Below, piece by piece: positions 6,480 through 34,830 of a stretch of 63,638 bases of DNA; position 1 is the first letter of the stretch; every line of letters starts with the position of its first letter. The position numbers and the translations under genes were made by a program. This DNA is from Nanobdellota archaeon (GTDB lineage Archaea > Aenigmatarchaeota > Aenigmatarchaeia > Aenigmatarchaeales > Aenigmatarchaeaceae): the NCBI GenBank assembly GCA_018901655.1, contig JAHIEG010000001.1:1-63638 (forward strand), given 5' to 3'. Under the pieces are notes generated by a model. The model saw only the letters and a list, made by a program, of their open reading frames with translations, searched no databases and was not told the origin of the DNA.

Positions 6480-7130
6480 ATGGAATTCATTAAATTAGCT
6501 TTTAGTGGGGATTCTAATTTAGGACTATACGGTTTTGCTACAGAAACAAAGTGCTTATTAGGATTTGAACCACAGAATAAAAATAAAATTGAAAAGGTAC
6601 TTGGAGTTAAAGTATATCATAGTACAATTGCTGAGACGAGATTTGCTGGAATACTTGCAGTTGGAAATGATAATGGTCTATTAGTTCCAGGTATAACTGA
6701 ACCTCATGAGATAGAAAAATTAAAAAAAATATTTTCTAATGTTCAGGTTATAGATACAAAGCAAACAGCTTTGGGAAATTTAATCTTATGTAATGATAAA
6801 GGATGTTTAATTGCAGAAAATTTAGAAAAATATAAAGATATGATTTCTAAGTGTTTAGGAGTTCCAGTAGAAGTGGGTACAATAGCTGGATTAGATATAA
6901 TTGGATCTGCTGGAAAGGCTACAAATACTGGCTGTTTGGTTCATAGAGATGCAACAGATGAAGAGATTAAAAAAATAGAAGAAGTATTAGGAGTAAAGGT
7001 TGATGTTGGTACTGTTAATTTTGGAACACCATTTATAAAAGCTGGTGTTATAGTTAATAGTAAGGGTTTAGTGATTTCAGAGAAATCAACTGGACCAGAA
7101 ATAGATCGATGTTTTGAGGTGTTTAAATGA
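6480..7130 (+). CDS. eif6: Translation initiation factor 6 (aIF6)
   Basis: GDSNLGLYG, TALGNLILCNDKG, GTVNFG.PFIKAG..VNSKG, STGPE. Confidence 0.96.
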   Translation: MEFIKLAFSGDSNLGLYGFATETKCLLGFEPQNKNKIEKVLGVKVYHSTIAETRFAGILAVGNDNGLLVPGITEPHEIEKLKKIFSNVQVIDTKQTALGNLILCNDKGCLIAENLEKYKDMISKCLGVPVEVGTIAGLDIIGSAGKATNTGCLVHRDATDEEIKKIEEVLGVKVDVGTVNFGTPFIKAGVIVNSKGLVISEKSTGPEIDRCFEVFK

Positions 7131-32681: not shown

Positions 32682-33428
32682 TCAGCAAGGATATTCGTTA
32701 CAATAATTTTCTATCATTTCTCTACAAGGTGGTGTAGAAGTGTCTTCGGTTATCATATCACAAATTTCTAAAGCTCTTGCTTCATCTGACCTCCTTGCTA
32801 TTACAGCGATATTGTGAAAACACATATCTTTTGCTTTTGTAATTAATTCATTACAAAAATTTACACCTGCTTCTACATCAGTTTCAGCCATTTTTGTACC
32901 TATTTCCTGTAAACAATTCTCTTTTGGATATCCTTCAAAATAATTATTGCAGACATTCTCTGCTTCATCGAAATTATTATTAGTTATCGCTGTTTGTGCT
33001 TTTTGTTTAATACACGAATTTGCTAGACTTTCATCAGATATCATATTACAAATTTCAATAGCTTTATCTAAACCATCATTAATATATGCTACACCTGAAG
33101 CTTGCATATAACAATCTGGGCATATGTCTAAAATTTCTCCCCAGGTTTCAGGATTTTTACAATCAGGAACTTCTACTTGTTCTCCTTGTATTGAAGTATA
33201 GCATTTTTTCTCAGATGTTACTATACCAGAGCAATATATATGTGTACCACAATCCAAGCAACCAACTGGATAATAATCAAATTTGAAACCTATGCAGCCA
33301 TATTCTGTTCGTTGAATATGCGGTGGACCAGGACAGAAACCGCAGGTACCACCAGCATCTTTAGGATAGAAAAATGCTATTAGAGGTATAAGAATTATTA
33401 TTATTAAAATTAAAATCAGTTTATTCAT
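32682..33428 (-). CDS. N-terminally anchored Cys-rich surface protein with helical repeats
   Basis: Hydrophobic N-terminus, CGFCP and CLDC motifs, repeating A..ICN.I......C units. Confidence 0.75.
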   Translation of the reverse strand: MNKLILILIIIILIPLIAFFYPKDAGGTCGFCPGPPHIQRTEYGCIGFKFDYYPVGCLDCGTHIYCSGIVTSEKKCYTSIQGEQVEVPDCKNPETWGEILDICPDCYMQASGVAYINDGLDKAIEICNMISDESLANSCIKQKAQTAITNNNFDEAENVCNNYFEGYPKENCLQEIGTKMAETDVEAGVNFCNELITKAKDMCFHNIAVIARRSDEARALEICDMITEDTSTPPCREMIENYCNEYPC

Positions 33429-33458
33429 AACAATAATTAGTAGAACTGTCTTATAAAA
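33424..33458 (-). promoter_or_regulatory. Leaderless promoter element C3, shared with two pilin-like genes
   Basis: ttcataacaataattagtagaactgtcttataaaa resembles 34823-34861 and 43024-43062. Confidence 0.55.
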
Positions 33459-33483
33459 TTAGGGGATTTGTACAAAAAGTAAG

Positions 33484-33610
33484 TGGACTCAGGGGGATTT
33501 TCACTCAATGTAAATTATACTATCAAGATTTGAACCCCCAACCCCTCGCTGTTCTGAAAACAAATTGTTTCTTGCAAAGCGAGTGCTCTACCAGGTTGAG
33601 CCATGAGCCC
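33484..33610 (-). tRNA. tRNA-Ala(UGC) with introns at 37/38 (33551-33572, 22 nt) and 59/60 (33498-33528, 31 nt)
   Basis: Spliced GGGCTCATGGCTCAACCTGGTAGAGCACTCGCTTTGCAAGCGAGGGGTTGGGGGTTCAAATCCCCCTGAGTCCA; G3:U70; both introns form BHBs (TTTG/CAGA and TTCA/TGAA). Confidence 0.93.
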
Positions 33611-33682
33611 GGTATAAGTAATTATAAGATAATAGAATTTAAAGCTTTGGGTAAAAAGAAGAAAGGGCTGTTGACCCTAAAA

Positions 33683-33994
33683 TTATTTTTTGCTTAAAAC
33701 AATCTCTATACTAGAGACATTTAGTTTCTCGCCTTGATCGTTTGATACTTGTTCTGTACCTATGGTTACGTTTTTAATTATTGTATCTGTTACAAACTTG
33801 TTTCTAACTATTTCAGCTATATCGACAGCATGAGAAATTGCTCTTCCCCTCGCTCTTAATAGCACTTCTTTTTGTCCCTCGTTAAACTGTGTTACGCACG
33901 CTAGTACGTAGGACATTGCCGGTATAAAGATAAGTAAAATAAACAACTTTACTTAATTCTTCCCGACAAAGACCACATTGTCCATATCTGTCAT
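33683..33994 (-). CDS. albA: DNA/RNA-binding protein Alba, spliced: join(33957..33994, 33683..33923), 92 aa
   Basis: SD gaggtg before ATG 33994; spliced [29 protein letters not shown]...[23 protein letters not shown]. Confidence 0.92.
33924..33956 (-). other. 33-nt BHB-type intron in alba mRNA
   Basis: TTAAGTAAAGTTGTTTATTTTACTTATCTTTAT; 7-bp exon helix, 4-bp central helix, AUA and AAU bulges, 9-bp intron stem; contains an in-frame TAA. Confidence 0.85.
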
Positions 33995-34064
33995 ACTACC
34001 ACCTCGAACTGATTATTTACAACCACAAAGATCTTTACATTCTGCTTCCGACCTTATTTTATAT

Positions 34065-34487
34065 TTAACAACCACATAGTGCTGCACAATTTGCTTCTGT
34101 ATTAATATTGTAATAATTGTAACATAGTGCTGCTAAATTGTCGTTATCTACTGCGTCGTCTAAATTGCTCTTTGTCCATATTGTCGCTGTTTGCCAACCA
34201 GTTCCTGGATCAAGGCCATTGGTTCCTGATGTTGTAGCTGTTTCTTCTACTGCATCTTTGTCTGCATCAAAATTTGTTATCATTATTTGATTCGTTGATT
34301 TAGTACAACCTCCTCCAACTAGTTGAGAACAAGCAGCACTTTTTGCATCTCCAGATGCTGATGTAAACGCATCTTGATTAAATCCTGCTAAAAACAAAGC
34401 TACAACTCCTAAGAGTACGATTACAGATACTGCTACGACCACTAAAAGGTTTATTGGTAATTCCATTCCTTTCATTTTTTTTGTCAT
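34065..34487 (-). CDS. Type IV pilin-like protein (class III signal peptide)
   Basis: MTKKMKG|MELPINLLVVVAVSVIVLLGVV; Cys pairs in the head domain. Confidence 0.85.
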   Translation of the reverse strand: MTKKMKGMELPINLLVVVAVSVIVLLGVVALFLAGFNQDAFTSASGDAKSAACSQLVGGGCTKSTNQIMITNFDADKDAVEETATTSGTNGLDPGTGWQTATIWTKSNLDDAVDNDNLAALCYNYYNINTEANCAALCGC

Positions 34488-34509: not shown

Positions 34510-34830
34510 TTAGCAATTACATATTTCAATTCCTGTTTGATCACTATTAAAACAATAAGTTATTAATTCATCAAGATGGTCTGTTACTTTATCTCCTTCT
34601 TCTTGACCACATTTAACTTCATTTATTGTTATATCAGCTGCAGTTACATCACCTGTACAACCATTTAATGAAATGAATTTTTGACATCCGCTGTTTTTAG
34701 CTGCATCTAATTGTAATCCAGATGAACTTTGACCAAATACGTTTGTAAACATTGCTAAACTTGCTATAAGAACTACTATAGCTATTAGAAGTATAATAAG
34801 CATGTTGATTGGTAAACTTGAACCTTTCAT
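34510..34830 (-). CDS. Type IV pilin-like protein
   Basis: MKG|SSLPINMLIILLIAIVVL; AAKNSGCQK resembles AKSAACSQ of the neighbouring gene. Confidence 0.85.
   Translation of the reverse strand: MKGSSLPINMLIILLIAIVVLIASLAMFTNVFGQSSSGLQLDAAKNSGCQKFISLNGCTGDVTAADITINEVKCGQEEGDKVTDHLDELITYCFNSDQTGIEICNC

Follow-up and report, generated by a model that had tools for sequence, protein, structure and literature searches.

A predicted bulge–helix–bulge intron in the alba coding sequence of an aenigmatarchaeal genome, and its counterparts in other archaea

In the window examined here (the whole 63,638-nucleotide stretch of contig JAHIEG010000001.1, assembly GCA_018901655.1, from a Nanobdellota archaeon), the gene for the chromatin protein Alba is interrupted within the codon of Lys13 by an insert of 33 nucleotides (nt). 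We conclude that this insert is very probably a bulge–helix–bulge (BHB) intron of the alba pre-mRNA, removed by the tRNA-splicing endonuclease EndA and the ligase RtcB. This conclusion draws on the fold of the locus, on equivalent inserts in other alba genes and on the splicing genes and tRNA introns of the same genome; from these we infer that cleavage and ligation take place in the cell.

The interrupted gene and its predicted splice motif

The alba gene lies on the minus strand. Its reading frame from the ATG at 33994, if unspliced, runs for 13 amino acids and ends at TAA, and a second frame segment, from 33923 to the stop at 33683, codes for PAMSYVLAC...SKK. The insert that separates the two, TTAAGTAAAGTTGTTTATTTTACTTATCTTTAT as minus-strand DNA (33956..33924), carries the in-frame TAA. 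Direct reading of the sequence agrees with the initial annotation on all of these elements: the Shine–Dalgarno (SD) sequence GAGGTG, the start codon, the 13-residue unspliced peptide and the insert with its stop. The features of the gene and of the predicted motif are as follows.

34005..34000, minus strand: SD sequence GAGGTG, 5 nt 5′ of the alba ATG, read from the sequence
33994..33683, minus strand: alba, whole gene, interrupted by the 33-nt insert
33994..33957, minus strand: alba exon 1, from the ATG through base 2 of the Lys13 codon (AA)
33956..33924, minus strand: putative BHB mini-intron UUAAGUAAAGUUGUUUAUUUUACUUAUCUUUAU, 33 nt, with an in-frame UAA
33923..33683, minus strand: alba exon 2, from base 3 of the Lys13 codon to the stop, ending ...SKK
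33969..33916, minus strand: complete predicted splice motif, from the fold and the junction-anchored table
33969-33963 and 33922-33916, minus strand: exon–exon helix H1, 7 base pairs (bp), UUGUCGG with CCGGCAA, from the fold
33962-33959 and 33929-33926, minus strand: central helix, 4 bp, GAAG with CUUU, from the fold
33958-33956, minus strand: 5′ bulge AAU, predicted cut between 33957 and 33956
33930, minus strand: extra U opposite the 5′ bulge, from the fold
33925-33923, minus strand: 3′ bulge AUA, predicted cut between 33924 and 33923
33955-33931, minus strand: intron hairpin, 9-10 bp, from the fold

With 33956..33924 deleted, AA is followed directly by A and the frame encodes a protein of 92 amino acids, which matches the Pfam Alba family at 1.6e-20 and aligns without a gap over the junction to the solved structures PDB 2z7c, 1nfh and 3toe (~1e-28). 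The cut rule of EndA, after base 2 of each bulge, produces GKKPAM and this gapless Alba. Exactly one pair of cut sites yields the conserved Alba peptide, and it is the pair that had been predicted from the rule. The minimum free energy (MFE) fold has −23 kcal/mol (z = −4.98 against dinucleotide shuffles), and folding reproduces the originally described arrangement of a 7-bp exon helix, an AUA bulge, the GAAG/CUUU helix, AAU opposite a U, and a stem. The core, two 3-nt bulges on opposite strands with a 4-bp helix between them, is present in a relaxed form, as are both flanking helices, h (exon–exon, 7 bp) and h′ (intron, 9-10 bp). No Rfam family was found in 33300-34200.

In the proposed pathway, the codons for F-V-G (UUGUCGG) would pair after transcription with those for P-A-M (CCGGCAA), and GAAG would pair with CUUU of the intron, the remainder of which would form a hairpin of 9-10 bp. 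EndA would then cut after the second bulge base on each side, at ...GGGAAGAA|U and ...CUUUAU|A. Ligation of the exons by RtcB would create the codon AA|A, and the spliced mRNA would encode full-length Alba with its GKKPAM motif. If splicing did not occur, the transcript could give only the 13-residue peptide or an N-terminally truncated protein.

The assembly (665 kb in 23 contigs, 84% complete, with a guanine and cytosine content of 30%) contains a single Alba match, the exon 2 segment. An intact alba elsewhere in the genome, which the initial annotation had named, in combination with exclusively unspliced transcripts, as evidence that would speak against its reading, was thus not seen in the 84% assembled, and no further copies of the 33-nt intron were found in the genome. 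The closest alba loci among public genomes carry the label Candidatus Aenigmatarchaeota, and the organism is therefore a DPANN archaeon.

Related inserts, covariation and selection

Our survey covered 371 genomes of the phylum, with alba in 285 of them and ~257 alba genes inspected (G000 is the genome of the window, other G numbers are other genomes, and L numbers are loci, including those on metagenome contigs). Altogether, 24 inserts of 18-34 nt occur in 23 alba genes, at three positions; 14 genomes carry them, and seven more introns at the position of the window insert (site A) come from metagenome contigs. The search for alba in relatives that the initial annotation had suggested thus turned up inserts at the same codon, with compensatory changes in the stem. 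As judged from these sequences, the putative alba introns form a family across Aenigmatarchaeota and other uncultured archaea.

Site A splits the codon of the second Lys in GKKP after its second base (AA|A, Lys13). It is occupied in G000, G001, G006 and G011, which represent four genera of the window's family, in G039 from another family, and in the contig loci L143, L145, L147, L149, L151, L152 and L153. Site B, 4 nt upstream of site A and after base 1 of the preceding codon, is occupied in G171, G176-179, G193 and G204 (one family) and in G133 and G118 (another family). Site C, at GVI|TQF, holds an 18-nt second insert in the alba of G118. This last gene (L134) combines a 31-nt site-B intron with the site-C intron, laid out as CGUG-AUA-GGUUaauAACC-CACG-AAA, and so has three exons in ~90 codons. 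The SD sequence (GAGGTG or GAGGTA) and the ATG are kept 5′ of exon 1 in the other intron-bearing genes, and every carrier genome has one alba.

The inserts measure 18, 20, 22 (three), 23, 28 (five), 30 (two), 31 (six), 32, 33 (two) and 34 nt, and their sequences are mostly unalignable between lineages. Most lengths are not multiples of three and would shift the frame if retained, so that read-through could not rescue it. An assembly or sequencing artefact in this metagenome-assembled genome (MAG), which is fragmented into 23 contigs, is exceedingly unlikely, since 22 further alba genes, on independent MAGs and metagenome contigs from different studies and assemblers, carry equivalent inserts. 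The same comparison bears on an alternative modelled on gene 60 of phage T4, in which programmed translational bypassing or frameshifting would carry the ribosome across the insert. Such a mechanism would account for a stop codon directly after the take-off region, for the stable hairpin and for the AAG codon found on both sides of the insert in G171. In the window, however, there is no AAG or AAA landing codon before CCG and GKKP would not be produced; across the family, the gaps of 18-34 nt vary in sequence and share no conserved codon pair, whereas the BHB geometry is conserved. We regard bypassing as highly improbable.

The geometry was scored formally for 21 introns, 20 from alba and one from minD of G000 (described below); a first table held 14 (13 alba and minD). 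In all 14 of the first table, a 4-bp central helix and two 3-nt bulges coincide with the junction that the protein requires, and when the alba introns among them are cut behind the second base of each bulge, the exact product is GKKP(A/S/T)M, GRKPSM or GVITQF. All 21 have a central helix of 3 or 4 bp at the junction set by the protein alignment, and the cut rule restores the protein in every scored intron but one (L149). For 10 independent sequences, the central helix has a joint probability of 1e-11 under shuffling, which falls to 1e-20 when the stem is included.

Base pairs were counted in 12 site-A introns anchored by the splice junction only, against 500 shuffles; site-B and minD introns were left out because MAFFT moved the former by 4 nt and misplaced the latter. 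Pairing cells amount to 82.3%, compared with 61.7% in shuffled sets, and the covariation score is 0.585, compared with 0.206. Neither value was reached by any of the 500 shuffles, and slid controls did not exceed 0.19. Pairing in the central helix stands at 97.9%, and each of its four pairs shows double changes. In the exon–exon helix, the synonymous Val3:Pro3 pair, formed by codon third bases, reads AU, UA, CG and GC. Both synonymous H1 pairs are present in five of five carriers, as against 18% of 66 intronless alba genes. Covariation at synonymous sites can be understood only if the RNA motif is in use.

These data also bear on the possibility that nothing is spliced and that a short Alba starts internally, at TTG 33946 or at the ATG of Met16, with exon 1 dispensable. 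The ATG of PAMSYV is conserved 3′ of the insert in every gene, and gene callers do produce such proteins: as the initial annotation had anticipated, the open reading frame (ORF) list of the window contains an 87-residue ORF with a TTG start at 33946, and public calls at homologous loci are Alba products of 75-88 amino acids. Neither start in the window, however, is preceded by an SD sequence, and the product would be without strand β1 and the GKK motif, both of which align to all solved Alba structures. Moreover, the exon 1 residues NVVFVGK are conserved through synonymous codon changes across the intron-bearing genes, and compensatory synonymous changes in the exon–exon helix would matter only if the RNA motif were used. 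An internal start is, on this evidence, quite unlikely.

Both exons are under purifying selection: between carriers, the ratio of nonsynonymous to synonymous substitution (dN/dS) lies at 0.07-0.15 and the synonymous sites are saturated. This is the main difficulty for the view that alba is a pseudogene or bears a neutral scar, its function lost or supplied from elsewhere. The in-frame stop after codon 13 would fit that view, and an assembly 84% complete leaves room for a second copy. However, G000 and each of the carrier genomes have a single Alba match, both exons are open in 23 independent genes with the SD sequence and ATG of exon 1 kept, and the inserts always have the geometry for exact removal. 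The selection data already largely refute a pseudogene as we read them, and we consider it very unlikely.

The intron of the window shares its ends, UUAAG...CUUAUCUUU, with those of L145 and L153, and its inner stem has changed compensatorily. Site-A introns with shared loops or ends would accordingly be homologous rather than independent accidents.

In 7 of the 12 site-A introns, a G-C pair closes a common apical loop, UUG(C/A)(G/U)(G/A), on top of covarying stems; those listed for it are in G011, G039, G006, L143, L152 and L153. The apical loop of the window, UUGUUUA (33950-33940), begins with UUG too. The shared loop suggests common descent and possibly a bound factor.

Splicing enzymes and other introns of the genome

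The genome encodes both enzymes needed. RtcB is found on contig C17 (PF01139, 2e-174) and EndA on contig C18 (16457-17029; PF01974, 4e-27), the latter an α-type protein of 179 amino acids with both Pfam domains. Among solved structures, this EndA is closest to the catalytic α subunit of Nanoarchaeum equitans (3iey), with which it has in common a Lys-rich insert, GVKPMKKGPKQEQEH, that is missing from the Methanocaldococcus jannaschii enzyme. A Lys-rich loop of DPANN type, GVKP.KKGPK, is conserved in the EndAs of the family. Kaneta et al. (PMC5829648) describe an L3 loop of the Nanoarchaea/ARMAN-2 type as widespread in DPANN, including α4-type enzymes, and connect it with relaxed motifs and with the disruption of tRNA genes. 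The loop fits both the relaxed 5′ site of alba and the T-loop intron of the tRNA described below. A weak match on contig C6, considered as a second EndA subunit, was rejected as an HTH_10 protein. Tandem EndA paralogues, two in number, occur in G011 and G007, and the other genomes of the family have one.

A control for the cut rule adjoins alba:

33484..33611, minus strand: tRNA-Ala(UGC) with two BHB introns, 72 nt 3′ of the alba stop and on the same strand

One of its introns, of 22 nt, is at 37/38, and the other, of 31 nt, interrupts the T-loop. Neither ARAGORN nor Rfam detects the unspliced tRNA-Ala(UGC); once the BHB cut rule is applied, the tRNA is perfect and ARAGORN calls it as tRNA-Ala(tgc). 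It thus serves as an internal positive control for the rule as applied to alba. Elsewhere in G000, ARAGORN with intron search places introns in about two-thirds of the 30 tRNA genes found. Twelve of the 23 contigs are without any ARAGORN tRNA, so some tRNAs are probably hidden by non-canonical or multiple introns.

A second coding sequence of G000 is interrupted in a similar manner. On contig C5 (~6941-6970), the Walker A box of minD contains a 30-nt insert (GGU GUC GGA A|...|AA ACC) with a central helix UCGG/CCGA and bulges AAU and AAA, and the cut rule restores GKGGVGKTTT. The same central helix, UCGG/CCGA, is found in the site-B alba introns of G133 and G118. The genome-wide search for coding-sequence introns that had been proposed at the outset, run with a BHB scanner and an ORF-joining filter, reduced 1775 candidates to 419 and then to 105. 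Alba stood out with the best helices, but boundaries between adjacent genes dominated the candidates and the relaxed minD intron was missed. The scan is neither specific nor sensitive and yields no intron count.

Several observations weigh against the splicing proposed for the window. Its 5′ site faces an extra U rather than presenting a clean 3-nt bulge, and the MFE fold draws a 5-bp central helix and a 2-nt bulge, which would be an alternative register of one relaxed 5′ site; canonical 3-4-3 versions of the motif occur in G006, L147 and L151. Chance at a single locus is considerable: 17% of shuffled inserts give a correctly placed 4-bp central helix and 7% give a central helix and a stem, because an A/U-rich insert pairs readily with GAAG. 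As evidence of a BHB, the alba locus of the window taken alone is only suggestive, and the case rests on comparison, in which the 24 inserts, the covariation and the selection make the alba motif significant beyond single-locus chance. Within the family, the central helix of L143 has only three of four pairs, and L149 has a 4-nt 3′ bulge, such that its protein is restored only with the cut measured from the exon helix. EndA reads Ala or Ser at the position of the catalytic Lys156 of M. jannaschii, as in all 18 family members (RLAHNIR[AS]N), and phmmer found no second EndA subunit in the 84%-complete assembly. Intron-bearing tRNAs are many in the family, so an EndA with Ala or Ser at this position is presumably active.

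The proposal of the initial annotation that alba depends here on the tRNA-splicing machinery is therefore supported by comparison, covariation and selection, by the EndA and RtcB genes and by the tRNA-Ala control, and no other reading accommodates these observations. Its further suggestion, that the intron makes Alba output splicing-controlled or autoregulated, found no evidence in support and is speculation.

LAGLIDADG genes beside alba, and known systems

Two pilin-like genes lie 5′ of alba on the minus strand, at 34065-34487 and 34510-34830, with C-termini rich in Cys (...CGC) and an N-terminus resembling a class III signal (MELPINLLV...); no Pfam family matches either of them. The end of the first lies 70 nt from alba, with no LAGLIDADG gene between the two, and this synteny is kept in most relatives, where the first pilin-like gene adjoins alba. 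In G011 and G001, a gene for a double-motif LAGLIDADG_3 protein with a C-terminal helix-turn-helix (Pfam 1.5e-15 and 2.5e-17, respectively) stands between the pilin-like gene and alba, which are immediate neighbours in the window and in intronless relatives. G012, a congener of G001, lacks both the endonuclease gene and the intron. No LAGLIDADG_3 gene was found beside intronless alba at any of ~95 loci, and neither motif searches nor homology searches with the G011 protein found one within 1.5 kb of site-B introns.

A protein search gave 13 LAGLIDADG homologues, of which 8 were looked up; all 8 lie immediately upstream of alba, and their other neighbours differ. At seven of these loci the Alba product is called at 75-88 amino acids and the DNA contains a site-A intron. 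At the eighth, L150, alba is intact and its site has diverged to VGQKAPM, compared with VGKKPAM, as expected if sequence change were an alternative escape from cutting. With G011 and G001 included, 10 of 10 LAGLIDADG loci are directly upstream of alba and 9 of the 10 alba genes are interrupted. In G011 (L029) and L143, the LAGLIDADG ORF lacks its own stop codon and continues in frame across the SD sequence, ATG and exon 1 of alba, to end inside the mini-intron.

By analogy with collaborative homing, the alba mini-intron may be the RNA-level immunity half of a mobile module, which would be new for Archaea; we hold the chances for and against this to be evenly balanced. A free-standing double-motif LAGLIDADG enzyme dedicated to alba would cut intronless DNA encoding FVGKKPAM. 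That target would be split by a BHB intron with no room for a coding sequence, the host's own tRNA-splicing enzymes would neutralise the intron at the RNA level, and endonuclease gene and intron would spread together through break repair. The intron of the window would then be a relic, left after loss of the endonuclease gene, hence the ends and stem architecture shared with the endonuclease-linked introns of L145 and L153; such a loss, following fixation, would leave an intron with no endonuclease gene, as in the window. By the same process, tiny introns would accumulate in conserved DPANN genes.

In papers of 2018, 2020 and 2025, the crenarchaeal cbf5 gene is cited as the sole case of a BHB intron within an archaeal coding sequence, with an intron in the 5′ untranslated region (UTR) of HVO_1309 added. 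The literature searched contained nothing on an alba intron. Judged by its sequence, the alba intron is of the EndA/RtcB type and would be among the very few mRNA introns in archaeal protein-coding genes. A major chromatin- and RNA-binding protein would thereby join cbf5 on the list of coding-sequence introns, in a different superphylum, and its production in these reduced genomes would be dependent on EndA and RtcB. With 24 examples at three positions, there is enough material for a study of intron origin, movement and loss, and, through the tight linkage between LAGLIDADG genes and interrupted alba, the question of how ORF-less BHB introns spread can be put to a direct test. Annotation pipelines miss or truncate such alba genes.

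Among the closest known systems is the BHB intron of the cbf5 pre-mRNA in Crenarchaeota (Watanabe 2002; Yokobori 2009, PMC2738675). Both are tRNA-type BHB introns in a coding sequence, removed by EndA and a ligase (as predicted for alba), and both have a patchy distribution, with gains and losses, in hosts whose endonucleases have broad specificity. The alba introns do not belong to the cbf5 family, which is defined by the cbf5 site in Desulfurococcales and Sulfolobales: they are found in a different gene, in Aenigmatarchaeota (DPANN), bear no sequence relationship to it, measure 18-34 nt, occupy three positions in one short gene and have an associated family of free-standing endonuclease genes. 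The BHB intron in the 5′-UTR of the HVO_1309 mRNA of Haloferax volcanii (Schwarz 2020, PMC7714728) is likewise an mRNA substrate of the archaeal splicing endonuclease. However, it lies in an untranslated leader and interrupts no frame, and it was shown experimentally, whereas the case for alba is comparative.

For the homing proposal, the parallel is cyanophage S-PM2, in which, according to PMC6083498 (citing Zeng 2009), the free-standing endonuclease F-CphI is encoded beside the intron-containing psbA. In collaborative homing as described there, the endonuclease cuts the intronless allele and the ORF-less intron protects the host copy. The relatives of the window resemble the cyanophage in having an ORF-less intron in a conserved gene and an adjoining gene for a free-standing homing endonuclease; the window itself, by contrast, has no such adjoining gene. 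A further contrast with the cyanophage system is that the alba intron would be a protein-spliced BHB rather than a self-splicing group I intron, with an enzyme of the LAGLIDADG type and a cellular archaeal host.

The BHB introns of tRNA and rRNA, including the non-canonical ones of DPANN and Thermoproteales, have a motif geometry and cut rule identical to those of alba. In alba, by contrast, the host RNA is a messenger and the F-V-G and P-A-M codons make up the exon half of the motif, such that the structure would be maintained via synonymous positions. Some archaeal rRNA introns encode LAGLIDADG endonucleases, for example I-DmoI, whose ORF is inside the intron. The interrupted alba loci with an adjoining endonuclease gene likewise combine a BHB intron with a LAGLIDADG enzyme but divide the two differently: the alba intron is too small to hold a gene, and the endonuclease gene lies outside it, upstream of exon 1.

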